Of a stretch of DNA of 64,000 bases, positions 4,698 through 45,054 are shown piece by piece (position 1 is the stretch's first letter; each line of letters begins with the position of its first letter). The stretch is from Rhodothermales bacterium (GTDB taxonomy: Bacteria; Bacteroidota; Rhodothermia; Rhodothermales; VXPQ01): NCBI GenBank assembly GCA_965116435.1, contig OZ220686.1:325005-389004 (forward strand), written 5' to 3'. The position numbers and the translations under genes are program-made. Under the pieces are notes generated by a model. The model did no database searches. It had not been told where the DNA came from and was given only the letters and a program-made list of their open reading frames with translations.

Positions 4698-7600
4698 GTG
4701 CGTAGCGTACCTCATCCAATATATCCAGATGCTTACCCGATGTTTATGCAGCCCCGTTTCCGACTGCGAGGAAGACATGACGATAGCCCGCCGGGCGTGG
4801 CTACGATCTCGCCGATTTCCCCTGCTGCGCAGGGATGCATGCGCAGAAATAGCCCCCCCCCCTCACTTTCCGGCGTTGGAGGTAGGGGCCGCGGCGGCGC
4901 CCCGGACGTACCATCCGGTTCCCGGCGGATTCTGCGCACCCGCGGCTTCGCGGCGTTTCTTTTCGCGCTGCTGGGCGTAGCGGGGCTGGCGGGTTTCGCA
5001 CGCCCCGCCGCCGGGCAGGACCCGGTTATCGTGTCCAAATCCTGGGCTTTCACGCCCAACGGGTTTGAGATTGGCGAACAGTTTCGGCTGCTCTTTGTAA
5101 CGTCCACCAAGCACGCCGCGAGCTCGACGGATATTGCGGACTACGACACATTCGTGCAGAATAGGGTGGCCGCCGGACATACGAAGATTCGGGAACACAG
5201 TAGCAAGTTCAAGGTGCTCGGCTCCACGTCGTCGGTAGATGCGATAGACCATACCGGGACGACCTGGACGGAGATGGACAAGGGCGTACCGATCTACTGG
5301 CTGAAAACTTCTATCGGGAGCGGCGCCAAGGTGGCCAACAACTACGAGGACTTCTACGACAATACGTGGATCAACCTCGACAACGCTAGGAATGAATCCG
5401 GGCAGAAAGTGATTACGCCCACCAATCTTGCGCATAGTATCGACATATGGACAGGGACAAATAACGACGGTACGAAGCATAAGTATCCTCTCGGCAACAG
5501 CAATCCAAATGGTAGAGTAATGTATGGTCAACCTTGGGACGGTAAACATCTAATTGGCACCAGCACTTGGGGGAGTAGGGATCAAACAAAACACCTCTAC
5601 GGCCTTTCCCCCGTGTTCGAGGTCGGCGTAGTGCCGACGAAGGTAACCCTTTCGGTGAGCGGCGGGGTTACGGAAGGGGGGGCGGGCCTCTCCATTACGG
5701 CGACCGCCTCGCAACGGAACGCCGAAGGGAATGCAGTGAGCATACCGATCTCGGTGCGGAGCCATGCCACGACCGCAGACGCCGCGGATTATACGGTGGC
5801 TTCTTCGATCAGCATTGCCAACAATGCGACGACCGGGACGACCACCTTGTCCGCGCCCTCGGGCGACGGCGACGAGCTCGTGGAGCAGGTGGTGGTCGGG
5901 CTGGACACGACGGCTACGTGGCCGGCCAACTGGCAGTGGGCGGATCCGGATTCGGTGATTGTCCCCATTACGGACAACGATCCGACGTCGGTGACGCTCC
6001 AGGTGACGGACGGCACGACGGACGAGGGGGATATGATGGACACGGCGGAGATTCAGCTTACGCTGGGCCGGGCGCTCGAATCTGGGGAGAGCATCGGGGT
6101 TCCGCTGCAGTTCGCCGGCGGCGCGCTGGGCACGAATTTTACCCTGGCCCTCTCCGGCACGCCCGCCGGCGTGGCGCTCAGTTCGAACACCGTGACGTTC
6201 ACCGGCGGCGCGGGGAACGCCTCCACGGCGACCCTGACGGTGACCGCCATGCAGGACGACCTCGGCGTTCCCGAGACGGTGACCGTGTCCATTCCGGCGT
6301 CCGACAGCGACACGCCGGGTCTTACGGCGACAGGCCTCGACGGCGGGGCCAGCGGCAGCGGCACGGGCGAGATTATGATTACGGACGACGAGCCGCCAAC
6401 CTACGTGGCGTCCATCCTGAGCGTGGCGCCGGACTCGTTCGAGGGGAACGGCACGGGCCACTCGGACCGGCTCATCACCTTTGACGTGACGCCCAGCCCG
6501 CCGGCAAAAATAAACGTCGATTTTTGCATGAGCGGCACGGCGACCTATGACCGGGACGGCGCGGAGGCGGATTATGAAATTGTCGATGCCCGCGGCGGCG
6601 GATGGGGTTTTCGCCGCGACGACAATTGCTCGACGGGCGGGTTCCTGATGCCCAACAACGCGGGGCCCTTCTCGATTCGGGTCTATAGAGATGACGATGT
6701 CGAAGAGGACGAAACGGTTACGCTGACGTTGACGACGAATAGTCAAACAGCGAACGACGTGATTATTTCCTCTACGAACAACACCGTGACCTACACGATT
6801 CTGAACGATGACTACCCGACGCTCGATTTGTCGGTGAGCGACGACGGGGAGGTGACGGAGGAGGGGGGCATGCTCACGGTGACGGCGACGACGAGCGAGA
6901 CGCTGTCCGGCAGCAGCCTTTCCATTCCACTGGAGCGCGTGGCGGCGCATTCGACCGCCGCCACGTCGGACTATACGCTTTCCGGGTCTCCGGCCGGCAC
7001 GATCACGATCGCCGACGGCGCGAGCAGCGGCTCCATTACGCTGACCACCGTGGGCAATATACGCGATGATTTCTCGAAAACGCTGCGCCTCGCCATGATG
7101 TCGCCGCCGGACGACTACGAGGTGGGCGCGGAGTATGTGGACGTGGTGCTCGTGGACGACGATTCGACGCAGGTGACGCTCTCCGTGCGAGCAGGAAACA
7201 ATACCGCCACGGAGGGCGACGCGACGGTGACGGCCAAGATAGACGTGCAGCCAGGACGGAATCTGGTGGCGCCCGAGGTGCTTGAGGTGCCGCTCCAGTT
7301 CAGCGGCGGCGCGCCCGGCGAGGATTTCTCGCTGACGCTGGAGGGTTCTCCTGCCGGCGTGGCGCTGGAGCCGACAACCGGCGTGTTGACCTTCACCGGT
7401 CCGGCCGGCAACGCCGTGGTCGTCGTGACCGCACTGGACGATGTGGACGGGATAGATGAACGGGTGACCGTAACGATACCGCTGAGTTCTGCAGGGTCCG
7501 CGCCGAAGCTCACGACGACGAACATGGATGGCGGCGCCGTGGGCGCGACAGTTGACCGCCTGGGCAGCAATGTCATTATGATCACGGACGACGACGAGGC

Positions 7601-10232
7601 TGCAGCGTCGTTCGCCTCGGCGTCGGCAAGCGAGGGGGAGGGGGCCGGGACGGTGGACCTGACGGTGAATCTGGCGCCTGCGCCAACCGAGGACATCACC
7701 CTGACCTATATGCTTACCGGCACGGCGGCGCGGGGTTCGGACTACGATATTTCGGGCGTGACGGGCAGCACGGGGACCTTGTCCGTGTTGACAGGCGCCA
7801 CGTCGGCGACCATTTCGGTCGATGTGACGGACGACATAGCCTGGGAGGACGCCGAAACGGTTGTGCTGACGCTTCAGGACGGCACGGGCTATGTGCTGGG
7901 CAGCACGACGGTGCACACGCTTACGATTACGGACAACGACACGGCAGAGGCCTCCTTCGCCTCGGCGACGTCGAGCGTGGGCGAGGCGGCCGGGACGAAC
8001 GTGACGCTCGACGTGACGGTGAATCTCAACCCCGCGCCGCCCGCGGCGATCACGCTGAACTATATGCTTTCCGGCACGGCGGGACGGATCGGGGATTACT
8101 GGATTGACGGGGTGACAAGCGCTACGGGGACCCTAACCGTGTCTCCGAACGCAACCTCCGCAAACATTACGGTGAACGTGCGGGACGACATGATCACGGA
8201 AGCGTCCGAGACGGTCCTGCTCACGCTGCAGCCCGGCGACGGCTATACGCTGGGGAGCACGAGGGTGCATACGCTTACGATTACAGACAACGATACGCCG
8301 GCGATTATCGTAACGCCTTCGCTGTTCGAGGCGCCCGAGGAGGGGCCGGCCAAGACCTACGCGATCCGCCTCGGCACGGAACCGCCGGGGACCGTGACCG
8401 TGACGCCCGTGTCCTCGGACCCGGGCGCGGCGACCGTATCCGGGCCGCTCACGTTCGACAGACTGGACTGGCAGACGGACCAGACCGTGACCGTAACGCC
8501 CGTGCAAGACAACGATGCGGACAACGAGACGGTGATGATTTCGCATACGGTGACGGGCTACGGCAGCGGGACGTCGTGGCCGGCCGTAACGGTTGCGGTG
8601 AACGACGACGAAATATCCCCGAATGTGGGCGTGACGACGAGCGCGCTGACGCTGGACCTTGCGGAGAACGGCGCCGCCGGGAGTTACATGATCCGCCTGA
8701 ACACGAACCCGGAAGCTACGGTGACCGTGACGCCTGTGTTGCCCCCGAACACAGACGCATTGACCGTTTCCGGGGCGCTTACGTTCGACGGGACTACCTG
8801 GGAGGATCCGCAAACCGTGACGGTGACGCCGCGACAGGATGCGGACTGGCTGGACAATACCGTGATGATCCGGCACCGGGTATCGGGCTATGCCGGGGTG
8901 CCGAGCAACGTTGCGGTCGGGCCGGTGACGGTGACGGTTGCGGACGACGACGAGGCGCCGCCGGTGGCCTCCTTTGCGTCCGCGTCGTCCAGCACGGGCG
9001 AAGGGACGGGGATCGTCAACGTACGGATAAACCTCAATCGCGCGGCGCCCTCGAACCTTACGCTCCGCTACAGAGTGGGCGGCACGGCGACGGGCGGAGA
9101 GGACGTTACCGTGGACAATTCCGGATCGGCCACGGTGCCTTCTGGCTCGGCGTCGGCCACGGTCACGGTGGCCATCTTGGACGACAGCGTAACGGAGGGC
9201 GTCGAAACCCTCGAACTGAGGCTCCAGAGCGGCACAGGCTACCAGGTAGGCGCCGTCAGCGTCCACATGATCGCCATCGACGACGACGATACGCCGAGCA
9301 TTGCGGCAAGCATGTCGTCCCTGGACCTGGACGAGGGCGGCGATCCCGGCGCCTACACGTTGGCCTTGGGCAGCCAACCAGACCGAACAGTAACGATCAC
9401 GCCGGTCTCGAGCGACAAGCAGGCGGCGACGGTATCGGGCGCATTGCGCTTCAATGGCTCCAACTGGCAGGACCCGCAGGTCGTCACGATAACTCCGGTG
9501 GACGATGCGGATGCGGACCACGAAACCGTAACGGTTACGCATGTCGTGACCGGCTACGGCGACATGACAATGGGGCCGGAGGTCGAGGTTTCTGTGGAGG
9601 ACGCCGCGGCGGCGGGCGTAAGGGCGAGCGTGCGCACGCTGTCCATTCAGGAGAACGGCGATCCCGCTACCTACACGCTGGCGCTGCGTACCGATCCGGG
9701 AGGCGCGGTCATTGTCACGCCGTCGTCCAGCGACGAGCAGGCGGCGACGGTATCGGGCGCGCTCACGTTCGACAGTTCCAACTGGCAGGCCCCGCAAACC
9801 GTCACGGTAACGCCTGTGAACGATACGAATGTGGAGGACGATATGGTGGTTATCTCCCATGCGGTGACGGGATATGCGGGCGTCGCGGCAGGGCCTGCCG
9901 TGCATGTCACCGTCGTGGACGCCACGACGATCATTTCCGTGGAAGAGGAAGAAAAGGAGGAGATTCCAACGGCCTTTGCGCTGGAGCAGAATTATCCGAA
10001 TCCGTTCAATCCGGTCACCACCATCGAGTTTGCGCTGGACAAGGCCGGGTACGTCACGCTCTCGGTGTACGACGTGCTTGGGAAGCAGGTGCGGCTCTTG
10101 ATGGACGGCGTACGGCCGGCGGCGCGGTACCGCGTTTCGTTCGACGCTTCGGGCCTGGCGAGCGGAACGTACCTGTACGTCCTGCGCACGGAGCAGCAAA
10201 CCGCCGTCCGAACCATGGCGCTGCTGAAGTAA
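4698..10232 (+). CDS. Giant secreted Calx-beta repeat protein with T9SS C-terminal sorting domain
   Basis: 1844-aa ORF. It contains many Calx-beta-type modules (e.g. ASFASA.S.GEGAGT..L.VNL.PAP...ITL.Y.L.GTA..G.DY.......L.....TSA.I.V.V.DD...E..ETV.LTL). The signal peptide is RGFAAFLFALLGVAGLAGFARPAAGQ and the C-terminus is FALEQNYPNPFNPVTTIEFAL...YLYVLRTEQQTAVRTMALLK. The start is uncertain (GTG 4698, ATG 4740/4746 or ATG 4839). Confidence 0.85.
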   Translation: MRSVPHPIYPDAYPMFMQPRFRLRGRHDDSPPGVATISPISPAAQGCMRRNSPPPSLSGVGGRGRGGAPDVPSGSRRILRTRGFAAFLFALLGVAGLAGFARPAAGQDPVIVSKSWAFTPNGFEIGEQFRLLFVTSTKHAASSTDIADYDTFVQNRVAAGHTKIREHSSKFKVLGSTSSVDAIDHTGTTWTEMDKGVPIYWLKTSIGSGAKVANNYEDFYDNTWINLDNARNESGQKVITPTNLAHSIDIWTGTNNDGTKHKYPLGNSNPNGRVMYGQPWDGKHLIGTSTWGSRDQTKHLYGLSPVFEVGVVPTKVTLSVSGGVTEGGAGLSITATASQRNAEGNAVSIPISVRSHATTADAADYTVASSISIANNATTGTTTLSAPSGDGDELVEQVVVGLDTTATWPANWQWADPDSVIVPITDNDPTSVTLQVTDGTTDEGDMMDTAEIQLTLGRALESGESIGVPLQFAGGALGTNFTLALSGTPAGVALSSNTVTFTGGAGNASTATLTVTAMQDDLGVPETVTVSIPASDSDTPGLTATGLDGGASGSGTGEIMITDDEPPTYVASILSVAPDSFEGNGTGHSDRLITFDVTPSPPAKINVDFCMSGTATYDRDGAEADYEIVDARGGGWGFRRDDNCSTGGFLMPNNAGPFSIRVYRDDDVEEDETVTLTLTTNSQTANDVIISSTNNTVTYTILNDDYPTLDLSVSDDGEVTEEGGMLTVTATTSETLSGSSLSIPLERVAAHSTAATSDYTLSGSPAGTITIADGASSGSITLTTVGNIRDDFSKTLRLAMMSPPDDYEVGAEYVDVVLVDDDSTQVTLSVRAGNNTATEGDATVTAKIDVQPGRNLVAPEVLEVPLQFSGGAPGEDFSLTLEGSPAGVALEPTTGVLTFTGPAGNAVVVVTALDDVDGIDERVTVTIPLSSAGSAPKLTTTNMDGGAVGATVDRLGSNVIMITDDDEAAASFASASASEGEGAGTVDLTVNLAPAPTEDITLTYMLTGTAARGSDYDISGVTGSTGTLSVLTGATSATISVDVTDDIAWEDAETVVLTLQDGTGYVLGSTTVHTLTITDNDTAEASFASATSSVGEAAGTNVTLDVTVNLNPAPPAAITLNYMLSGTAGRIGDYWIDGVTSATGTLTVSPNATSANITVNVRDDMITEASETVLLTLQPGDGYTLGSTRVHTLTITDNDTPAIIVTPSLFEAPEEGPAKTYAIRLGTEPPGTVTVTPVSSDPGAATVSGPLTFDRLDWQTDQTVTVTPVQDNDADNETVMISHTVTGYGSGTSWPAVTVAVNDDEISPNVGVTTSALTLDLAENGAAGSYMIRLNTNPEATVTVTPVLPPNTDALTVSGALTFDGTTWEDPQTVTVTPRQDADWLDNTVMIRHRVSGYAGVPSNVAVGPVTVTVADDDEAPPVASFASASSSTGEGTGIVNVRINLNRAAPSNLTLRYRVGGTATGGEDVTVDNSGSATVPSGSASATVTVAILDDSVTEGVETLELRLQSGTGYQVGAVSVHMIAIDDDDTPSIAASMSSLDLDEGGDPGAYTLALGSQPDRTVTITPVSSDKQAATVSGALRFNGSNWQDPQVVTITPVDDADADHETVTVTHVVTGYGDMTMGPEVEVSVEDAAAAGVRASVRTLSIQENGDPATYTLALRTDPGGAVIVTPSSSDEQAATVSGALTFDSSNWQAPQTVTVTPVNDTNVEDDMVVISHAVTGYAGVAAGPAVHVTVVDATTIISVEEEEKEEIPTAFALEQNYPNPFNPVTTIEFALDKAGYVTLSVYDVLGKQVRLLMDGVRPAARYRVSFDASGLASGTYLYVLRTEQQTAVRTMALLK
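4853..4862 (+). repeat. Homopolymeric C10 tract in the leader of the first Calx-beta gene
   Basis: Counted directly. It encodes SPPP between ATG 4839 (MRRNS) and the hydrophobic signal-peptide core. Confidence 0.95.
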
Positions 10233-34923: not shown

Positions 34924-35835
34924 CTAAAGCCCCAGGCTCTCCCGCACCTCGGCGAGCAGGGTGGAGGCGTCCTGGGCGGCGTCCACGTACAGGGCTTCGG
35001 AATGTCCCCGAAACCATGTTTCCTGGCGCTTGGCGTACCTGCGCGTGTTCTGCTTGATCAGGCGCGTCATTTCGGATTCGTCGATCTCGCCCTTGAGGAA
35101 CGAGATGGGTTCCCGGTAGCCGATGGTGCGCAACGGGTTGAGGGCCGGATCGTACCCCGCCTCGAGAAGGCCGCGCACTTCGTCCACTAGGCCGTCGGCC
35201 AGCATGGCGTCTGCACGGCGTTCGATGCGGTCGTAGAGTTCGGCCCGGTCGCGGCGCAAAATGACCGTCTGGAAGACATACGGACTCCGCCGCCGCGCCT
35301 GGTGAAAACGGCTGAGGGGTATGCCGGTCGCTTCGTACACCTCAAGGGCGCGGGCAAGGCGCTGCGTTTTGGTGGCGTCCATCGTGGCGGCAGCCCGGGG
35401 ATCGACCTTTTGCAGTGTGGCGTACAGCGCCTCCGGGCCGTCCTGCTCCAGGCGCCGCTGGACATCCGCCCGAACCGTAGCGGGAATGTCGGGAATGTCG
35501 GCCAGGCCATGTTCGAGGGCGTGCAGATACAGGGTGGAGCCGCCGGCGACGAGTGGAATGCGCCCGCGACGCAGAATATCTCCAATGCGATCCCGCGCCT
35601 CGTCCATGAATCGGCCTGCTGAAAAAGGCTCGCCAAGCGACCGTTCGTTCACGAAATGATGGGGGAGGCGTTCGAGAATGTTCGGGGCGGGCTTCGCTAC
35701 GCCAATGTGCAGTTCCCGATAGATCTGGCGACTATCCGTCGAGATGATTTCTATTTCAAGTATTTCTGAAATAGAAATGACTAGCTCCGTCTTGCCCACG
35801 GCAGTAGGACCTGTAATAACAGGTATTATTTTCAT
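34924..35835 (-). CDS. miaA: tRNA dimethylallyltransferase
   Basis: P-loop ITGPTAVGKT, with SRQIYRELHIGVAKP and the conserved tail TRRYAKRQETWFR. The start was set at MKIIPVI (35835). Confidence 0.9.
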   Translation of the reverse strand: MKIIPVITGPTAVGKTELVISISEILEIEIISTDSRQIYRELHIGVAKPAPNILERLPHHFVNERSLGEPFSAGRFMDEARDRIGDILRRGRIPLVAGGSTLYLHALEHGLADIPDIPATVRADVQRRLEQDGPEALYATLQKVDPRAAATMDATKTQRLARALEVYEATGIPLSRFHQARRRSPYVFQTVILRRDRAELYDRIERRADAMLADGLVDEVRGLLEAGYDPALNPLRTIGYREPISFLKGEIDESEMTRLIKQNTRRYAKRQETWFRGHSEALYVDAAQDASTLLAEVRESLGL

Positions 35836-36125
35836 TCCGTTATTGCTTGATTCGGGGTATTTGCGGGGAGTGCCAAGCACCTACCGGGCCTTGCGGCGGC
35901 AACGTTCAGGAGCGCGATACGGGGAGCAGCAGGGCGTCTGGTATGTATGTGGCCTATGGCGGCGGTTTCCAAAAACGAGGCAGGGGTTGCGTGGAGCCGG
36001 ACACGAGGCCGCGGGGTCTGCGGGATCGGGTTAGATTTTCGGGCAAACGGTTTTCAGTGCCTGTTGTTAAGGAAACACGGGGGTGGACGCAACGCGCAGG
36101 GGCGACGATTGCCGGACCGGAGCGG

Positions 36126-37118
36126 TCAAGGCGTTGTCTCGTCTATATGGATGTAGTCCGCCGCGCTGTCGCGCAGGCGGTCCCGTTGATGCACGTACAC
36201 CATGGTCGTTTCGATTTTCTTGTGTCGGGCGTGCGACTGCACCTGCTGAATGGAGGCCCCGGATTCGATGGCGAGAGTGCAGCCTGTGTGGCGGAGCGAA
36301 TGCGCCCCGATTTCCTTTGGAAGTCCGGCTCGCCGCGCCGTGCGATCCACAACGCCGTAGATGGAACGCTCCGAAAGGCGTTTCCCGAAACTGTTGTTGC
36401 TTAAAGAGCGCCAAAGGGGGCCGTCCGTAATGCCGTAATACGTTTTCATTCGGTCGATTTCTTCCACGACATGCGGGGGAATTTTCACGTACTGATCGGC
36501 GCCGCCCTTTGTGTCGGGCAAATCGAGCACCTGATAGTCGCCGAGCATGCGAATATCCTCGACGTTCATGGCGGCGGCCTCGGAACGGCGCAATACGCAG
36601 TGGAGCAGGGTGAGCAACAGGGCCCGGTCCCTTGGCGCCGAATGGGCTTGCTTGCCGTCCGGGCCAGGATTCGTCGCCGCCTGCACAAGCCGTCCGGCTT
36701 GCTCGGCGGTCAACACGATGCGGGCGCCGTCGCGGCCGCCCGATTTGCGGACCCGCCGCAAAACATGCCGGCTGGCCGGGTTGCGGGTCAATACGCCGAG
36801 AGCCACCAGCCATTCGAAAAATCCCCGAATGGCTGCGAGGCGGCGTTTGATGGTGGCGGGCTTGTAGCCGTTTTTTTCCATCTCCGCAATGTGCCGGTTA
36901 ATGTCGGTAAACGACAGTTCACGCACCGTCACCGTGTCCGCAAAATCGGATCCGAAGAAAGCCGCCAGATCGTCTCCGTAGGCTTTACGGGTTTGGGGGC
37001 GGTCGTACCGATCCAGAAACGCTTCGACAAGGTTGGCGTCCGGGCGGATAATGCCCGTAGCGACATCCATCAAGGCGATCAAGTCGGCGGAAGAGACGTT
37101 CTGGGACATGGGAGGCAT
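36126..37118 (-). CDS. Tyrosine recombinase, XerC/XerD-like (phage integrase family)
   Basis: 330 aa. It has an N-terminal SAM-like domain (TRKAYGDDLAAFF), and the catalytic region has RRSEAAAMNVEDI ... HSLRHTGCTLAIESGASIQQVQSHARHKKIETTMVYVH (R..H-R-H..Y). Confidence 0.85.
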   Translation of the reverse strand: MPPMSQNVSSADLIALMDVATGIIRPDANLVEAFLDRYDRPQTRKAYGDDLAAFFGSDFADTVTVRELSFTDINRHIAEMEKNGYKPATIKRRLAAIRGFFEWLVALGVLTRNPASRHVLRRVRKSGGRDGARIVLTAEQAGRLVQAATNPGPDGKQAHSAPRDRALLLTLLHCVLRRSEAAAMNVEDIRMLGDYQVLDLPDTKGGADQYVKIPPHVVEEIDRMKTYYGITDGPLWRSLSNNSFGKRLSERSIYGVVDRTARRAGLPKEIGAHSLRHTGCTLAIESGASIQQVQSHARHKKIETTMVYVHQRDRLRDSAADYIHIDETTP

Positions 37119-37147
37119 TGGATTGGGAGTGTTATTTTACTTCCGAT

Positions 37148-37177
37148 AAGAACTGTTATCGGAAGTAGAGACAGTAT
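37148..37177. promoter_or_regulatory. Perfect 12-6-12 inverted repeat TACTTCCGATAA-GAACTG-TTATCGGAAGTA (candidate recombinase core site or operator)
   Basis: Read directly. It lies 30-59 bp upstream of the recombinase start codon. The geometry, and the inner ATAA-N6-TTAT, are the same as dif-type Xer core sites. Confidence 0.45.
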
Positions 37178-37371
37178 ACGGCGTATAAAACGGGTTGTCA
37201 AGGGGTTTGGTGGTTTTTTTCGAGGGATTTCGTAGCGGGTTGACTTTGCCCGGGCGTTTTCTATATTATATCCGCATTCTCATTTTCGTAACATTTGGCG
37301 CCTTGCGCGGGCGTCCCATAGCGCGGGCGCGGGCCAAGCCTGCAACGCCCCTACTCAGACTCGATAACGAT

Positions 37372-37788
37372 ATGAAAGAACGGTTTATGCTCAAGGCGCT
37401 GGGCTTGCTCCTGGTCGTATTCAGCGCGGAGGCTGTTGTGCAATGGCTCGTCGGATTGTTCGAAGGACGCCTTGTTTTCGAGGCGGACCTGCTCGTGTTG
37501 CTGATCGGCGTTGGGTTGTTTTATGCGCATCCCTTATGGGGCTTGGCGGCAAGAGCGTATGTGGTTTTGTGCGGTCTTGCGCTCATTGCTGTCACCGCGT
37601 TAGCGTTTGCAGGATTCCCGAATGTTGGCAACTGGCTGGAGTTCATGGAACGCGATACCCTCGACTCCATCCCCCCTCCGTTTATCGCGCTGTACGCCGC
37701 TACGTTGCTGGCGCTCCTCGCATGGAGTTACATATTCCTGCATAAAGCGGCCCGCGCGGACAAGGATGTGCGGGAAGTTTCGGAGTGA
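37372..37788 (+). CDS. Hypothetical membrane protein (138 aa, about 4 TM)
   Basis: The ORF was trimmed to ATG 37372 (MKERFMLKALGLLLVVF). It has four hydrophobic helices and no recognised motif. Confidence 0.45.
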   Translation: MKERFMLKALGLLLVVFSAEAVVQWLVGLFEGRLVFEADLLVLLIGVGLFYAHPLWGLAARAYVVLCGLALIAVTALAFAGFPNVGNWLEFMERDTLDSIPPPFIALYAATLLALLAWSYIFLHKAARADKDVREVSE

Positions 37789-37832: not shown

Positions 37833-40649
37833 ATGGCGCAGGCGACCATAGACAGACTGATAATCAATTCCCCCTACAAGGAACCGGCAAGGCATTGGAA
37901 CTATGACCGCGCCTCGCGCCTGTTCGATCTCGCAGAGGGTCGGCGTCCGGCCGGATATGTTGTAGCTTCGCAGGACTCCAAGACCTTTGATGACCCTGGA
38001 ACCTTTGTAGAAATCCCTCTGGTTAATCAGATTCGCACCCGCGTCAAGAAGTGGCGCGACGCAGGGTATCCGGGCGTAACCGGCGTTACTCGCCGCCTGC
38101 TTCAGCACTGGACAGATCCAGAGGAATTCGCCGAACGACGATTCTTCTTTTGCCAGATTGAGGCTGCCGAAACACTGATCTGGCTTGCGGAAGCATCTTC
38201 CTCCGAGAAAGTAGGCATCGATATTCCAGCCGACGGGGGAAATTTCCAGCGGCTATGCGCCAAAATGGCGACGGGTTCAGGGAAAACCGTGGTTATGGCC
38301 ATGATCATCGCATGGCACATCCTGAACAAGGTCGCATTTCCACAGGACCGCCGATTCGCCAAAAATATTCTTGTGATTGCGCCGGGACTGACCGTCAAGA
38401 GCCGCCTGTCGGTTCTGAACCCCTCTCACCCGGAAAATTACTACCAGGCATTTCGCGTCCTCCCCTCCCCTATGCTGGACAAGCTCCGCCAGGGGAAGGT
38501 GCTTGTGCATAACTGGCATGCGCTCAACTGGGAGACGGACGAGAAAATCGCCAATAAACGCAGCGTGGACAAACGCGGAGCGAAGAGCAACGAAGCGTAT
38601 GTACGGGAAGTGCTTGGAGATATGGCGAATGCCCGAAACATACTGGTTATCAATGACGAAGCACATCATGCGTGGCGTGTTCCTGCCGGATCCGGTGCGC
38701 GAGGGATTAAAAAAGAGGATATCAAACCAGGGGACATCGAACAAGCCACGAAATGGATTGGCGGACTGGATCGAATAGACCAGGCTCGCGGGATCCTTGG
38801 GTGCTACGATTTTTCGGCGACGCCTTTTGTCCCGTCCGGCAAAAAAAGTTCGGAGGAAGCGCTGTTCGACTGGATCGTGAGCGATTTCGGGCTGAATGAC
38901 GCTATTGAAGCCGGTCTCGTCAAAACACCCCGCGTAGTGATCCGCGACGACGCCGTTCGAGACGCAAAAACCTACAAATCGCGGCTTTATCATATCTATA
39001 ACGATTCTGAAGTAAAGGACGACCTGAATCGAAAGGCCGAGCCAACGGCTCCTCTTCCCGACCTTGTTCTGAATGGCTATTACCTTCTCGGGTACGACTG
39101 GCGCGAAACAGCAAGGCAATGGCAGTCTCAAGGCTATAAGACCCGGCCAGCAATGATTACCGTGACAAATCGCACGGAGACGGCGGCGAGGATCAAGCAC
39201 TCTTTCGACAACGGCAAAATCCGCATTGACGAGCTTTGCGATGCGAAGCGAACGCTTCACATCGACTCGAAAGTCCTTGAAAAGGCCGAAGCCGCCGACG
39301 GGCCGATCGCCGAAAGCAACAAGAAATCTAAGCCAAAACAGCGCGCCGAATTTTTGCGCTTGCAGGTAGACACCGTGGGGCAGGAAGGAAAGCCCGGAGC
39401 GGATATCCAGAATGTGATCGCCGTGGGGATGCTATCCGAAGGCTGGGACGCCAGAACCGTAACGCACATCATGGGCCTGCGGGCCTTCACCAGCCAGTTG
39501 TTATGCGAACAGGTGGTAGGGCGTGGCCTGCGCCGCACCGCCTATGAAACGAATCCGGAAACCGGTCGCTTCGATCCGGAATACGTCAATATCTTTGGTG
39601 TGCCCTTTACGTTTTTGCCGCACGAATCGAAGCCAGGCGTAGTGCCGCCTCCGCCTAAGCCGAAAACCGAAATCAAACCTGATCCCGAAAAGGCGGCGTT
39701 CGAGATTCGGTGGCCCAATCTCGTTCGTATTGATCGCGTATTCCGTCCGCATTTAACCCTTGATCCAGATCAGGTAGCGCAGATCGAGTTGAGTGCAGGG
39801 CAAACCATTCGCATCGCCGAACTGGCGCCCGTGGTCGAGGGCAAGCCAGACTTGAGGAAGATATCCCTTATCGAACTCGACAAACTGGCTCGCGAGTTCC
39901 GTACCCAACGTATCGTGTTCGAAACGGCGGCGGAGGTATACGACCGGATGCAGACGGATTGGCAAGGCAGCCGGGAATTTCTGCTGGCCCAGTTGGTGAG
40001 GCTCATAGACAAATTCATCCGCTCCGACAGGATTGTCGTTACATCCTCCCTGTTCGACCAGGATCGTCTAAAACGCCGCCTGATCATTACGCTTAACATG
40101 ACCAGGATTGTCGAACATATCTGGCAGGCGATTCACTTCGAAAACGTCGAAAAACTGGAGCCGGTATTCGATTCGGACCGCCCTGTTTGCTCAACCGGAG
40201 ACATGATCACCTGGCATTCCAGCAAGCCTTGCGAACCGACCGAACACAGCCACATCAATTTCTGCGTGTACGACAGCGCCTGGGAGGCAACGGAAGCCTT
40301 CGCTCTGGATCGCAGCCCCCTCGTGGAGGCATGGGTGAAGAACGATCATCTCGGTTTCGAGGTGTTTTACGTGTATCGCGGGGTGGTCAGAAAATATCGC
40401 CCCGACTTTCTCGTCAGGCTGACCTCTGGCGCTATGCTGGTTCTGGAAGTCAAAGGCAAAGAGAGCGAGCAGGATCGTATCAAGCACGGGTTTCTCGACA
40501 GATGGGTTGCCGCCGTCAATGCGCATGGAGGGTTTGGGCGATGGACCTGGGCTGTTTCGAGGAATCCTGGCGATATTCACGATATCCTCACGAAAAATGT
40601 GTTGCCGGATGTGTCTAAAGGGATGTCGGATACTCTTGCGGGAACATAA
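37833..40649 (+). CDS. res: Type III restriction enzyme Res subunit (SF2 helicase plus C-terminal PD-(D/E)xK nuclease)
   Basis: Motif I MATGSGKTVVMA, motif II VINDEAHHAW, motif VI EQVVGRGLRR, and a C-terminal nuclease-like PDFLVRL....LVLEVKGKE. 938 aa and intact. Confidence 0.85.
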   Translation: MAQATIDRLIINSPYKEPARHWNYDRASRLFDLAEGRRPAGYVVASQDSKTFDDPGTFVEIPLVNQIRTRVKKWRDAGYPGVTGVTRRLLQHWTDPEEFAERRFFFCQIEAAETLIWLAEASSSEKVGIDIPADGGNFQRLCAKMATGSGKTVVMAMIIAWHILNKVAFPQDRRFAKNILVIAPGLTVKSRLSVLNPSHPENYYQAFRVLPSPMLDKLRQGKVLVHNWHALNWETDEKIANKRSVDKRGAKSNEAYVREVLGDMANARNILVINDEAHHAWRVPAGSGARGIKKEDIKPGDIEQATKWIGGLDRIDQARGILGCYDFSATPFVPSGKKSSEEALFDWIVSDFGLNDAIEAGLVKTPRVVIRDDAVRDAKTYKSRLYHIYNDSEVKDDLNRKAEPTAPLPDLVLNGYYLLGYDWRETARQWQSQGYKTRPAMITVTNRTETAARIKHSFDNGKIRIDELCDAKRTLHIDSKVLEKAEAADGPIAESNKKSKPKQRAEFLRLQVDTVGQEGKPGADIQNVIAVGMLSEGWDARTVTHIMGLRAFTSQLLCEQVVGRGLRRTAYETNPETGRFDPEYVNIFGVPFTFLPHESKPGVVPPPPKPKTEIKPDPEKAAFEIRWPNLVRIDRVFRPHLTLDPDQVAQIELSAGQTIRIAELAPVVEGKPDLRKISLIELDKLAREFRTQRIVFETAAEVYDRMQTDWQGSREFLLAQLVRLIDKFIRSDRIVVTSSLFDQDRLKRRLIITLNMTRIVEHIWQAIHFENVEKLEPVFDSDRPVCSTGDMITWHSSKPCEPTEHSHINFCVYDSAWEATEAFALDRSPLVEAWVKNDHLGFEVFYVYRGVVRKYRPDFLVRLTSGAMLVLEVKGKESEQDRIKHGFLDRWVAAVNAHGGFGRWTWAVSRNPGDIHDILTKNVLPDVSKGMSDTLAGT

Positions 40650-40666
40650 ACGTCTGGTTACACACC

Positions 40667-43197
40667 ATGCCGAAAAAGAAAGACATTGAAAGCTACGCGC
40701 ACACCGATAAGGAGCGGACGAACAACCCTCCCGTCGGGCTGGTAACCCCTGAAACCGATCGGGATCAAGGCAGGAAGGGCTATGCTCACGATCCTCATAT
40801 CGACCCACAACTCGTCTGGGCCGGAAAGGCGGAGCATACGTCGTTCGAGGTCCCGACCGTCTCGCTGCATGTGCACGAACGCATAGATGCGCGTACGATC
40901 ATCGAGGCGACGCGGAAACGCAATGGCGCGCTGCCCCAGCCTTCGTTATTTGAAGGTCTGGGGGAAAATCCGCCGCTTCGCCAAGCCATCGAGTTCTACC
41001 GGCACAAGCATAACTGGACCAACCGCCTCGTTGCGGGCGACAGCCTGCTCGTCATGAACAGCCTGCTGGAAAAGGAAGGGCTTGGCGGGCAGGTGCAGAT
41101 GATTTACATAGATCCGCCGTATGGAATCAGTTACGGATCGAATTTCCAGCCTTTTGTGAATACGCGAAATGTGAAGGACGGAGAGGATGGGGATTTGACT
41201 GCAGAACCGGAACAGATCCGCGCTTTTCGAGACACCTGGGAAATGGGCATCCATTCCTATCTGGCGTATCTGCGAGATCGCCTTCTGATTTCGCGGGAAC
41301 TACTCACCGAGAGCGGTTCCTGTTTCGTGCAGATCGGCGATGAAAACATCCACCGCGTGGGTATGGTGATGGACGAAATTTTCGGCGCAGAGAATCGCAT
41401 AGCTACCATATCCTTCGCCACAACGAGCGGAAGTTCCACGTCCACCCTGCCACAAGTAGCCGATTACCTTCTCTGGTACGCAAGGGATCACAAAAAGGTG
41501 AAATACCGGCAAATATATGAATCCCTGACGCGGAGTGAGATAGTAGACCTTTTCAATTGGGATGTCATGGTAGAATTGCCGGATGGCGCATGCCGGAAGC
41601 TTACCCCCCAGGAACGCTTTGATCCCGATGCATATTTGCCCGAAGGCGCTCGCATTTATCAACGCACCGGACTGGATTCGCAAGGTGTTTCTACAACAGG
41701 TCGCTCCGAGCCTTATGAATGGAACGGCAGGGTATTTCCTTGCGGGAAAAATCGCCATTGGTCCATTTCCAAAGAAGGCATGGACCGTTTGGCCGAGCTG
41801 GGCAGACTGGAAGCGCTTGCTGGCCAAGAGTCGCTCAGGTGGAGAAAATACGAAAATGAAGTGCCAGGGCGACGCATCAACAATGTCTGGCCAGTCAAAA
41901 TGTACCCCAGCACAAAATCCTATGTGGTGGAGACCTCTACGAAAGCCATCCAGCGTTGCCTGCTGATGACCACGGATCCCGGCGATCTTGTGCTTGATCC
42001 CACTTGCGGTAGCGGAACCACGGCCTTCGTCGCCGAGCAGTGGGGACGAAGATGGCTTACTTGCGATACCTCGCGCGTTGCTATCACACTGGCCAAACAG
42101 CGGCTGATGACGGCGCATTTCGACTATTACGAATTGGCGCATCCTGACGAGGGAGTAGGTAGCGGTTTTCGCTACAAAACAGTCCCGAAGGTTTCTCCCA
42201 AGGTTCTCACAGGCGACGAATCGCAATCTGATATAGTCCTCTACGACCAGCCCCTGAAAGACAATAAAAAGTTTCGCGTCACGGGTCCATTCACACTGGA
42301 AGCCGTGCCTGCGCCTACGGTAAAACCGCTGGACGATATACAAGATACCCCCCCCCCCCCCACACGCCACCAGATGACTCGGTTGCTCGCTCGGGAGAAA
42401 CGCTCCGCCAGAGCGACTGGCGCGACGAATTGTACAAAACCGGCATCCGAGGCAAGGCCGGGCAGCGTATCTCATTTGTCCGCCTGGAACCACTTCCTGG
42501 CTGTCACTGGCTACACGCCGACGGGGAGACGCGCTCTGATAATGCCGAAACGGACTCCGAACGGGTTGTTATTTCCTTCGGTCCCGATCATGCTCCATTG
42601 GAACAACGCCAGGTGGCCTTAGCCATTGAAGAGGCGCAAAACCTCGTTCCCAAGCCGAAAATCATCGTTTTTGCCGCTTTTCAGTTTGACCCCGAGGCTG
42701 CCAAAGATATCGACGAAACAAATTGGCCCGGCGTAACTTTACTCAAGGCGCAAATGAACGCGGACCTGCTGACGGGAGACCTGAAGAAAAAACGCTCCAG
42801 CAACGAAAGCTTCTGGCTTATCGGCCAACCGGACGTAGAATTGGAAACAATGCAAGACGGCAAACTGCGGGTATCCGTACTCGGATTCGACTACTACAAT
42901 ACAAAAACCGGCAAGCCGGAATCCGGCGGATCGGACCGAATCGCCGTGTGGATGCTGGACCCGGATTACGATGGCCGTAGCCTGTTTCCGCATCAGGTTT
43001 TCTTTCCTTTGGCCGGTCCCAAAGACGGCTGGACCCGCCTTGCGCGCAACCTGAAGGCCGAGCTCGACGAACGTCTCATAGAAGCCTATCGCGGCACAAC
43101 CTCCCTTCCCTTCGAGCCGGGCGAGCACCGGCGCGTGGCGGTCAAGATCGTGGACGACCGGGGCATTGAAAGTTTGAAAATTGTGGAGGTGGGTTGA
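40667..43197 (+). pseudogene. mod: Type III-like DNA methyltransferase (Mod, N6/N4 beta-class), split by a frameshift inside a C14 tract
   Basis: Motif IV IYIDPPYG precedes motif I LVLDPTCGSGTTAFVA. Frame 2 (40667-42622) leaves the expected sequence at the C tract. The conserved C-terminal domain (..DWRDELYKTGIRGKAGQRISF...AFQFDPEAAKDIDE...DYDGRSLFPHQVFFP) continues in frame 1 directly from the tract to 43197. A tract of C15 or C12 would give one ORF of about 840 aa. Confidence 0.8.
42348..42361 (+). repeat. Homopolymeric C14 tract at the mod frameshift
   Basis: Counted directly (3+10+1 C across the line breaks). Confidence 0.95.
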
Positions 43198-44021
43198 TGG
43201 AAAGGCCGAGTAAGAAGAAAGCGATGGAGCGTTTGCAGAAAGCCCGAGAGGCAATTAATGAATTGCGGAGTCCGGATATCCTACGTGATCAGAGTAGCTC
43301 TCCAAAATTCAAAAAGTGGCACCGAAATACCGAAATTGCTATCACTAACATATTTGGCAATTCTCGTCATATTGAAGATTTTAGAAATGTTCGGTATCGC
43401 CTGCTAGCGTATTCTGATATGACCCCCGACGGAGAGTTCATTGAAGCCTATATACACGGCTTGGATTCAGCAGATGCAATACTTGAGTCAATGCTTGAGG
43501 AGATTAAAGAATATTGGGACAATGACATTAATACATCAACACCACCTTCATCCAAAGAAATATTTCAGTTAGATACAAACAAAATATTTGTCATCCACGG
43601 TAGAGACGAAGGCACCCGAGATATGCTATCTGGATTTATCAAAAAATTAGAACTTCAGCCTGTGATACTATCGGAAAAATCAAATCAGGGACTCACGATC
43701 ATTGAAAAATTCGAGAAGTATTCAGAAGTCGGATTCGCGATAGCTTTGCTGACGCCCGACGACACCGGATCGCTTAAAGAAGCCGAAAACAAACCGAATC
43801 CACGCGCTCGGCAAAACGTGATCTTCGAATTGGGCTTCTTCATTGGAAAAATTGGGCGAGAACGCGTATGCGCCCTTACCAAAGGAAAGCTGGAAATACC
43901 TTCGGACTACTCCGGCGTTGTGTACATATCATTGGATGACTCTGGTGGATGGAAGCTCCAACTTTGCAAAGAACTCAAGGACGCTGGATACGCAGTAGAC
44001 GTAAATCGAATTATGGAGTGA
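43197..44021 (+). CDS. TIR-like domain protein (CAP12/Pycsar-effector-type, COG4271-like) with an N-terminal helical domain
   Basis: The C-terminal 140 aa, KIFVIHGRDEGTRDMLSGFIKKLELQPVIL....IIEKFE....FAIALLTPDD......RARQNVIFELGFFIGKIGRERVCAL.KG.LEIPSDYSGVVY, match the TIR-like nucleotide-binding family as I remember it. The ATG overlaps the mod stop (TGATG). The gene is very low in GC. Confidence 0.7.
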   Translation: MERPSKKKAMERLQKAREAINELRSPDILRDQSSSPKFKKWHRNTEIAITNIFGNSRHIEDFRNVRYRLLAYSDMTPDGEFIEAYIHGLDSADAILESMLEEIKEYWDNDINTSTPPSSKEIFQLDTNKIFVIHGRDEGTRDMLSGFIKKLELQPVILSEKSNQGLTIIEKFEKYSEVGFAIALLTPDDTGSLKEAENKPNPRARQNVIFELGFFIGKIGRERVCALTKGKLEIPSDYSGVVYISLDDSGGWKLQLCKELKDAGYAVDVNRIME

Positions 44022-44062
44022 ATAAAAAAATAAGGTTTATATTTTTTCATAATGGTGTATAA

Positions 44063-44323
44063 ATGCTGTTCATCCGAAAAGCCGAAGCGGAACAATTGCT
44101 TCTTTCAGGCTTTGCCCGGGGTATGGTTAGCACCCATCGCCAGGGAAACCTGAGCCTGCCCAAGTTTGTATGGGCCGTGGACGACCAGGGCGAGGTTTAC
44201 GAAGCAAAACTGGACGGCGACGGACCCGGCTATCACGGGTACCGAATCAACGAATATCGAGACGCAGGCTCGCGCGTAATGCGCAAACAGGTGCTAAGGG
44301 CATGGAAACGACGGAGCAATTGA
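44063..44323 (+). CDS. Hypothetical small basic protein (86 aa)
   Basis: ATG ORF containing KFVWAVDDQGEVYEAKLDGDGPGYHGYRINE. It overlaps the next ORF by 22 nt. No family was recognised. Confidence 0.45.
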   Translation: MLFIRKAEAEQLLLSGFARGMVSTHRQGNLSLPKFVWAVDDQGEVYEAKLDGDGPGYHGYRINEYRDAGSRVMRKQVLRAWKRRSN

Positions 44324-45054
44324 AATTTACGTTCGTCCCGGAGCCGCTGGAGGAAGGCTCCCCGGAAGAGAAGGCTTCTTTCGGCAAGGTTTCCATTGCC
44401 GCAAACGGGCGCGTACTGACCGAAGGCATTGCGTTGCTGGAGGACAACGAGCTCGTCAGCGGGTCCCATGTTTCTGCCTATCATATGGCCGAATGGCTGC
44501 TGTGGAACTGGTGGCGGTTGCTTTGGGAGCCCCGTCCGGAAGGCGTGGAAAACGGCAAGGACGAGGATAAAGACGATACATGGTTCGAATGGGTTTTTGC
44601 GCACAATTTGTCCTCCATCGGCGAGGGTTATCTGTGGCCGGATATCGAAATGGCGTCGGACGGCGGGCTGATGCATCTGGCCTCTTCGCCGACCGGAGAT
44701 CCGAATGAAAAGGTGTTTCGCTTCGTGGGAGCATCGCGGCTGGAGACCATCCCGGTCGGGGCATTCATGAAGGCCGTGGACGAATTCGCCTGTGCCGTGC
44801 TGGAGCGCCTGGACGAGGCAAATATTCGGGATACCAACCTGCATGTTCTCTGGCGTCAGTTGGCGCGGGAACGGGAGGACAAGGCCGCGGCGGCGTTTCG
44901 CCGCATGGAGGCGATACTGGGATATGATCCCGGCGAAGGAGAGGACGACGAGATACGGGAATACCTTGCGGACGCCGCAACATTAGGAATGGATATTCGC
45001 CTTGCTCGCATTGCAGGACACTTGCTCGGAAGTTCCGCCGTTTCCGACGAGTAA
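44302..45054 (+). CDS. Hypothetical acidic protein (250 aa)
   Basis: The ORF was trimmed to ATG 44302 (METTEQLKF). It has the Trp-rich motif HMAEWLLWNWWRLLWEP. It ends 13 bp from the convergent Calx-beta gene and may be 3'-truncated. Confidence 0.5.
   Translation: METTEQLKFTFVPEPLEEGSPEEKASFGKVSIAANGRVLTEGIALLEDNELVSGSHVSAYHMAEWLLWNWWRLLWEPRPEGVENGKDEDKDDTWFEWVFAHNLSSIGEGYLWPDIEMASDGGLMHLASSPTGDPNEKVFRFVGASRLETIPVGAFMKAVDEFACAVLERLDEANIRDTNLHVLWRQLAREREDKAAAAFRRMEAILGYDPGEGEDDEIREYLADAATLGMDIRLARIAGHLLGSSAVSDE

Follow-up and report, generated by a model that had tools for sequence, protein, structure and literature searches.

A probable dif site and an adjacent, putatively dedicated Xer recombinase in Rhodothermales

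Introduction

Few Xer systems that work with a single recombinase are known, namely XerS, XerH, XerA and XerL. Here, we describe a 28-bp palindromic site and the xer-like tyrosine recombinase gene next to it (xer below), located in a 64,000-nucleotide stretch from a Rhodothermales bacterium (assembly GCA_965116435.1, contig OZ220686.1, positions 325,005 to 389,004). This whole stretch is referred to as the window, and positions are counted from its first letter. Sequence comparisons indicate that the palindrome is most probably the chromosomal dif of this bacterium and that the adjacent gene encodes its dedicated Xer recombinase; that this recombinase acts alone at dif is proposed with somewhat less assurance. 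An earlier note on the window had suggested a single-recombinase Xer system with a site of dif geometry beside its gene, a suggestion supported by the conservation of the site, the GC skew, the polar words and the XerC-type arms. The dif-xer module appears to be of the same kind as the XerS, XerH, XerA and XerL systems and a new member of it. No paper linking Rhodothermales, Rhodothermus or Salinibacter with Xer or dif was found among the papers searched.

In the organization of the module, the nearest described system is XerS/difSL of streptococci and lactococci, where, as here, one dedicated gene is located directly downstream of a dif at the terminus and the two form a taxon-wide, self-contained module (PMC1914069). 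The XerS system is FtsK-dependent, and difSL has been placed tentatively between the xerS coding sequence and its promoter, a layout for which Le Bourgeois and colleagues speculated on autoregulation and on protection against insertions (PMC1914069); the promoter and site in the window are laid out in the same way. Adjacency of site and gene has been put forward as a possible hallmark of systems with a single recombinase (PMC5357621). However, difSL is an atypical, asymmetric site of 31 bp, whereas the site described here consists of 28 bp in an 11-6-11 layout with symmetric, XerC-type arms. XerS also differs in length (356 residues) and is unrelated at the family level, as the protein from the window scores 50.8 bits with the NCBIfam model for XerS (NF003462), compared to a cut-off of 267.

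In fold and site length, the nearest system is archaeal XerA/dif, in which a single recombinase is paired with a 28-bp dif; XerA is also the closest solved structure (PMC2958812; PDB 4a8e, 5hxy), and some archaea carry a linked xerA-dif module, as found here. XerA has been reported to be FtsK-independent, with the short tetramers known as archaeal short polarized sequences (ASPS) as polar words, whereas the host here is a bacterium and GGGGAGG words, which resemble FtsK-orienting polar sequences (KOPS), converge on the site. The canonical XerC/XerD-dif system, known from Escherichia coli, Bacillus subtilis and other Bacteroidota, shares with this locus the 28-bp geometry, the inner ATAA and TTAT, the terminus location and the convergence of KOPS-like words (PMC3025954), but canonical dif is asymmetric and distant from the recombinase genes, whereas both arms are of the XerC type here and the gene is adjacent. 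XerH/difH of epsilon-proteobacteria and XerL/dif of Legionellales are, as is proposed for the present module, lineage-specific single-recombinase systems that were missed by homology surveys (PMC9765430). The difH site is near its gene, and the dif sites of Legionella and Coxiella are partly palindromic and near the terminus. In contrast, XerH (~360 residues) and XerL (catalytic tyrosine at 387–389) constitute separate protein families, and the sequences of their sites bear no relation to the XerC arm. The locus in the window differs from both XerS/difSL and XerA/dif in combining canonical XerC-type arms with a KOPS-like guidance signal.

Results and Discussion

The palindromic site

The analysis covered the window and 80 Rhodothermales loci of 20 kb (~1.2 Mb; L001–L080), which were obtained by a scan taking one genome per species. 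The perfect palindrome in the window spans 37138–37167, one base beyond the 28-bp core (Table 1) at either end, and reads TACTTCCGATAA-GAACTG-TTATCGGAAGTA. The core has the 11-6-11 layout and the inner ATAA/TTAT of dif sites, and the spacer reads CAGTTC in the direction of xer. The earlier note had correctly recognized the perfect 12-bp inverted arms, the 6-bp spacer and the inner ATAA-N6-TTAT, but had placed them at 37148–37177, 10 bp too far to the right. It had also put the site 30 bp upstream of the gene; the site is indeed upstream, but the actual gap is 19 or 28 bp, depending on whether the start codon is the ATG at 37118 or the one at 37109.

The palindrome is one of two perfect inverted repeats in the window whose arms reach 12 bp or more around a spacer of 3–10 bp, and first-order Markov simulations yield ~0.03 such repeats per window. 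The other such repeat (35747–35778, with 12-bp arms) was rejected as a relevant site, since it lies within the coding sequence of miaA and is not conserved. A search of the 64-kb window found no further copies of the arm with 0–1 mismatch, consistent with the previous inspection by eye, and no second site of the ATAA-N6-TTAT type; arm matches with two mismatches were at chance level.

Table 1. Positions of the site, its promoter, neighbouring genes and polar words in the window.
Feature	Position	Strand	Evidence or details
dif-like core site, 28 bp	37139–37166	no strand	ACTTCCGATAA-GAACTG-TTATCGGAAGT (+ strand)
Sigma-70-type promoter toward xer, TTGACA-17 bp-TATACT	37173–37201	-	11/12 consensus positions
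xer-like tyrosine recombinase gene	36126–37118	-	Pfam Phage_integrase (PF00589) and SAM-like N-terminal domain (PF02899), homologues, structure model
miaA (tRNA isopentenyltransferase), conserved downstream neighbour of xer	34924–35880	-	IPPT, E = 4e-78
Small gene, 138 residues, hydrophobic N-terminus, divergent from xer	37372–37788	+	Homologues in L001–L003, L005–L008, L010
Variable defence island, outside the dif-xer module	37833–45054	+	Family matches
KOPS-like GGGGAGG left of site	6846–35668	+	At 6846, 7635, 14488, 16514, 31441, 31583, 31725, 35662
Opposing GGGGAGG left of site	11512		One copy
KOPS-like GGGGAGG right of site	38459–60978	-	At 38459, 38464, 45057, 53619, 60972
Opposing GGGGAGG right of site	48593		One copy

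Conservation across Rhodothermales

The palindrome is retained at orthologous recombinase loci. About 60 of the 80 loci contain 11-bp inverted arms, a 6-bp spacer and the inner ATAA/TTAT exactly once in 20 kb, and most of the remaining loci display a perfect GATAA-N6-TTATC core at the same place when the symmetry is relaxed. Overall, ~70 of the 80 loci carry the site, in most cases at a distance of 0–800 bp upstream of the orthologous xer. Only two additional matches were found in the ~1.2 Mb, and the site is single in every 20-kb locus, except for an extra degenerate copy in L001, as it is in the window. The consensus over 58 distinct sites is ACnTnYGATAA-N6-TTATCRnAnGT, with no variation in the GATAA/TTATC core or in the spacer length of 6 bp. 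The pairing of xer with miaA is retained in 58 of the 80 loci, and xer, next to miaA, is a core gene that is inherited vertically. Even with 0.6–5.4 kb between it and xer, occupied by an HNH gene, an insertion sequence or other genes, the site is retained.

Among these intervening sequences, a homing-endonuclease-like gene of 180–230 residues is located exactly between site and xer, in either orientation, in 10 of the 80 loci: L014, L019 (9406–9954), L029, L032 (187–804), L051 (9336–9980), L052, L055 (9224–9883), L056, L057 (a remnant) and L074. Pfam searches with four of the inserted genes identified HNH_3 in all four and NUMOD4 also in two; the gene could be a selfish gene homing into a conserved junction or an accessory factor. 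An IS21-like element separates site and xer in L033, and, in L001, an IS5-family transposase (insertion sequence at 8550–9539) has come to lie between xer and the intact site. The intact and degenerate site copies of L001 are inverted and 362 bp apart (7989–8016 and 8379–8406), with the xer promoter between them; the degenerate copy reads AGTTACGATTA-GAACTG-TTATCGGAAGT. In L053 and L074, miaA is found on the opposite side of the site.

Symmetric XerC-type arms

The arm ACTTCCGATAA is identical to the arm on the XerC side of the dif predicted for Solibacter usitatus, ACTTCCGATAA-CGAATA-TTATGTCAACT, and close to the Bacillus subtilis arm ACTTCCTAGAA (PMC3025954). Canonical dif sites carry a conserved XerD arm, TTATGTnAAnT (TTATGTTAAAT), on the other side (PMC3025954). 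In its place, the Rhodothermales site has an inverted second arm of the XerC type, and the right arm never resembles the XerD arm. For 19 other Bacteroidetes, the predicted dif sites have the usual asymmetric form; the survey behind these predictions was limited to genomes with KEGG XerCD orthologues and did not include Salinibacter or Rhodothermus (PMC3025954). The omission of these two genera is an indirect hint that their genomes may encode no XerC/XerD pair.

Arm positions 3, 5 and 6 vary by lineage (ACTTCC, ACGTTT, ATGTAT and ACCTGT, among others), and they are symmetric in 41, 41 and 43 of the 58 distinct sites, respectively; shuffling gives expectations of 20, 15 and 29. Symmetry extends over 9–11 of the 11 arm positions in most lineages. 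This symmetric co-variation fits one protein, as a homotetramer, reading both arms. Template-switch repair of quasi-palindromes may add to the symmetry, and it would also account for the extended palindromes of L024 (19-bp arms, 9856–9899) and L064 (25 bp, 9900–9955). Palindromes of this length suggest either some active process that renders the arms symmetric or an extended structure of the site. Relative to xer, the asymmetric spacer (consensus NNNTTM) is forward in 47 cases and reverse in 20. L046 (GCCTTA) and L059 (TAAGGC) have the same synteny and spacers that are exact reverse complements, with the left arm unchanged.

GC skew and polar words

The site lies at the junction of two replication arms, as both the GC skew and the polarity of GGGGAGG change sign at it. 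Among the 32 loci that extend 5 kb or more to both sides of the site, the skew is positive to the left in 27, negative to the right in 29, and higher on the left than on the right in 28. With 1-kb bins, the change from positive to negative falls at the site, a check that the earlier note had proposed. The effect holds in each gene-strand class (left, +0.032 and +0.006; right, -0.019 and -0.029). The relative positions of the site in complete chromosomes range from 0.02 to 0.95 (from the contig ranges) and are uninformative, because the assemblies are not rotated to dnaA.

An unbiased word count showed that G-rich words are strongly polarized toward the site (GGGGAGG 180:27, AGGGGAG 113:9 and GGGGAGGG 64:5), and GGGGAGGG and GGGGAGG fit the Escherichia coli KOPS pattern GGGNAGGG. 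Across the flanks of 47 loci, GGGGAGG occurs 111 times on the plus strand and 15 times on the minus strand to the left of the site, and 12 and 69 times, respectively, to the right. The corresponding counts in the window are 8 and 1 on the left and 1 and 5 on the right. The polarity flips between 35662 and 38459 in the window, bracketing the palindrome, and, across the loci, within the 2-kb bins that flank the site. This bias is independent of gene strand, with expected versus opposite polarity in 38:0 loci on the left and 31:3 on the right. Kilobases of DNA separate site and xer in L033 and L021, and in both loci the first GGGGAGG of reversed polarity falls within this interval, which places the switch at the site and not at the gene.

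The AT-rich word GTTATTGC (extended form CCGTTATTGCAA) is also ~94% polarized toward the site (left 43:3, right 4:60, in L001–L080). It is found both inside genes and between them, is rare in the clade of the window, and might be a Chi-like or translocase-guiding word. The window contains one copy (35839–35846), just upstream of the miaA start, which is probably the ATG at about 35835, since the N-terminal P-loop reads from that codon.

The recombinase

The open reading frame of xer has the 330 residues previously counted when read from the first ATG. However, the second ATG (37109) is probably the true start, giving 327 residues, since M4 hardly varies and 327 residues is the length of the closest homologues. 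The earlier identification of the product as an Xer-like tyrosine recombinase is upheld by its Pfam domains (Table 1) and by intact catalytic residues. Arg177, Lys204, His273, Arg276, His299 and Tyr308 align with the catalytic residues of XerD, in an alignment to XerD and XerA, and are invariant across the family; the protein thus has the R-K-H-R-H/W-Y residues and the two-domain fold of the tyrosine recombinase superfamily. The AlphaFold2 model has a mean predicted local distance difference test score of 82.5. Its best structural matches are archaeal XerA (4a8e, 5hxy), followed by lambda Int, Cre, XerD and XerH, and XerA is also the closest sequence match in the PDB.

The scores of the protein are far below the curated equivalog cut-offs, not only of XerS (see above) but also of the NCBIfam models for XerC (TIGR02224, 115 bits versus 335), XerD (TIGR02225, 107 versus 330) and XerA (NF040815, 104.7 versus 220). 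The protein thus appears to resemble Xer in its working, yet to stand outside every named Xer family. Hundreds of homologues with 52–92% identity were found, all from Rhodothermales or unnamed "Bacteroidetes" metagenome assemblies, and the identity among them tracks taxonomy. None of the PADLOC defence-system models matched the recombinase. Chain 14 of PDB entry 9i5v (401 residues), deposited as 'Ribosome-associated translation inhibitor RaiA', aligns with the xer protein over ~250 residues (E = 4e-9), including the HxLRH and catalytic Tyr motifs, and the RaiA label probably misdescribes this chain.

Promoter and proposed mechanism

The -10 hexamer of the predicted promoter of xer (Table 1) ends 5 bp before the 30-bp palindrome and 6 bp before the 28-bp core, which would place the site at about +1 to +30 of the predicted xer transcript. 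This arrangement is conserved in L001–L013, including L001, in which an IS5-type element puts xer 1.6 kb away. Among 69 loci surveyed, a promoter with at least 9 of the 12 consensus positions abuts the site on the side facing xer in 16, compared to one on the mirror side. Autoregulation of the recombinase at the site is plausible, because a near-consensus promoter abuts it.

Based on these data, we propose that homologous recombination would join sister chromosomes into a dimer, and that septal FtsK, guided by the polar words, would then translocate toward the site. Two molecules of the single recombinase at each site, four in all, would synapse two copies of dif, and strand exchange across the 6-bp spacer by the Arg-Lys-His-Arg-His-Tyr active site would restore the monomers. 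The recombinase bound at dif probably limits its own transcription, since the xer promoter fires straight into the site. The promoter-site-gene layout may also penalize insertions at dif, because they would sever the gene from its promoter.

With moderate confidence, this proposal may be widened to the Rhodothermales (phylum Rhodothermota), which would resolve chromosome dimers by a single unclassified Xer acting at a symmetric dif of two XerC-type arms, in a GGGGAGG-guided and autoregulated cassette. The arms of such a site would evolve in concert, its direction would be set by the asymmetric 6-bp spacer alone, and it would lie within the promoter of its own recombinase. The cassette would then be a bacterial counterpart of archaeal XerA/dif that kept guidance of the FtsK type.

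Each single-recombinase system informs on the order of strand exchange and on control by FtsK without the asymmetry of XerC/XerD, and a natural, nearly perfectly symmetric dif raises the question of how cleavage is ordered and FtsK activation achieved without a XerD arm. The 58 distinct sites with co-varying arms are a data set for the co-evolution of recombinase and site. For Rhodothermales, which include thermophiles and halophiles with genetic tools, dif together with the GGGGAGG polarity would serve as a terminus marker that helps in assembly checking and replication studies.

Alternative interpretations

Several observations weigh against the assignment of the palindrome as a dif with a single recombinase. 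The comparison covers the window and the 20-kb loci rather than whole chromosomes. The 80 loci are phylogenetically related, so that significance tests overstate their independence, although the distal flanks are non-syntenic, which tempers this caveat. In the window itself, the skew to the right of the site is weakly positive over a foreign island (see below) and negative only past ~45–52 kb; the switch is blurred because the inserted island keeps a weakly positive skew to ~45 kb. In Rubricoccaceae-type loci, the outer four or five bases differ between the arms, which would allow for a second, unlinked recombinase there. Finally, the exact 22 specified bases, ACTTCCGATAA-N6-TTATCGGAAGT, are found with other spacers in more than 120 metagenome contigs of 31–71% GC (L134–L253), most of them without a homologue of xer. 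These contigs show no consistent skew switch (left higher than right in 11 of 29), and some of the copies adjoin other integrases (L154, L144) or genes of the ParA, AbiJ, HTH or RES-toxin type. The sequence alone therefore does not define a dif, and the assignment in Rhodothermales rests on position and conservation.

The unequal outer bases in Rubricoccaceae-type loci such as L069, L076 and L079 could reflect a dif that is served by two recombinases in at least some lineages, with the adjacent gene as the XerC-like partner and an unlinked XerD-like protein acting as well. Two paralogues from one metagenome-assembled genome (L023 and L068) and the slightly higher score of the xer protein with XerC than with XerD point in the same direction. 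Nevertheless, we regard this as unlikely, given the symmetry and co-variation of the arms in most lineages, a right arm that never resembles TTATGTTAAAT, and the adjacency of site and gene that is typical of single-recombinase modules. It is quite improbable that the palindrome is a mere operator of xer, bound by the recombinase or another repressor without any recombination, with the true dif elsewhere nearby. No other dif-like sequence is present in the window or the 20-kb loci, the skew and polar-word switches map to the site, its arms match canonical dif with a spacer of invariant length, and it is kept where kilobases of other genes intervene before xer. Since a protein bound so close to a near-consensus promoter would block transcription, the operator function that the earlier note had offered as an alternative is probably real as a secondary role, but not as the sole one.

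The earlier note had further taken xer to mark the left end of the defence island, which the comparison of loci does not bear out, and had offered the palindrome as a possible attachment or resolution site. That the gene is an integrase, and the site part of this type III restriction/TIR island or of another integrative element, is very improbable, even though the gene adjoins a variable region of low GC content and identical palindromes elsewhere adjoin integrases and plasmid-like genes. Only 3 of 10 close relatives carry the island, with another conserved gene separating it from the site in every case, whereas xer is a core gene that is syntenic with miaA, and linkage and site are retained in 58 of the 80 loci in the absence of the island. 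Protein identity follows taxonomy, as noted above. The window contains no flanking direct repeat, no tRNA gene as an integration target, and no second copy or half-site above chance at the far end of the island. Thus, instead of the pattern of an island integrase or of an integrative mobile element that exploits Xer (IMEX), a variable island is found beside a constant xer, site and miaA, with no second site. We give hardly any credence to a reading of the palindrome as a hairpin in the xer mRNA, formed by its 5' untranslated region and affecting stability or translation. The inner GATAA/TTATC is invariant while not needed for a stem, arm mismatches on the sense strand are not enriched in G-U wobble pairs (16/105), and the site persists even at a long distance from xer and with either spacer orientation; these facts outweigh the predicted transcription start, which places the whole palindrome in the transcript, and the symmetric arm changes, which would likewise keep base pairing. 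A known RNA family was also rejected, as no match was found in Rfam.

The same palindrome outside Rhodothermales

The metagenome contigs with the exact palindrome double as a negative control for the skew test. The site is intergenic in the ten contigs that were examined, and several of the spacers are themselves palindromic, for example TTGCAA and GAATTC. Representative copies are in L154 (7244–8436), L144 (1325–5739) and L179 (3120–4293). The possibility that every exact palindrome adjoins xer was rejected, since the contigs mostly lack the gene and show no skew switch. On the evidence of these occurrences, the XerC-arm palindrome appears to be a widely used core site for Xer-type recombinases; the metagenome copies may serve other lineages as dif or belong to elements that exploit Xer.

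A scan of IMG/VR with the inner 16 specified bases gave 53 matches, most of them in AT-rich, unrelated contigs. None of the 53 adjoins a close homologue of xer, and phages or other elements carrying the Rhodothermales site were thus rejected. Two of the IMG/VR contigs with 62–63% GC (L087, 1434–1455; L125, 1233–1254) contain GTGTCCGATAA-N6-TTATCGGACAC palindromes that are 0.3–0.6 kb from a tyrosine recombinase gene, whose product is 28–29% identical to the protein from the window. These would represent the same site grammar in a different recombinase lineage.

Neighbouring genes

In all close relatives, the small gene at 37372–37788, for which no Pfam or PADLOC match was found, separates the site from the defence island. 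The island contains a type III restriction subunit, a split type III methylase, a TIR protein of the PDC-S35 type and an unknown protein of 294 residues. Its GC content is 51–55%, compared to ~60–65% around it. The relatives that carry it are L002, L005 and L007, and a remnant is found in L001. The methylase is split over two overlapping frames (40667–42622 and 42430–43197), which match positions 78–545 and 733–982, respectively, of one 983-residue MTase_III model, and it is either a frameshifted pseudogene or the product of a programmed or phase-variable shift. The next gene (43194–44021) encodes the TIR protein, which belongs to the candidate defence family PDC-S35.

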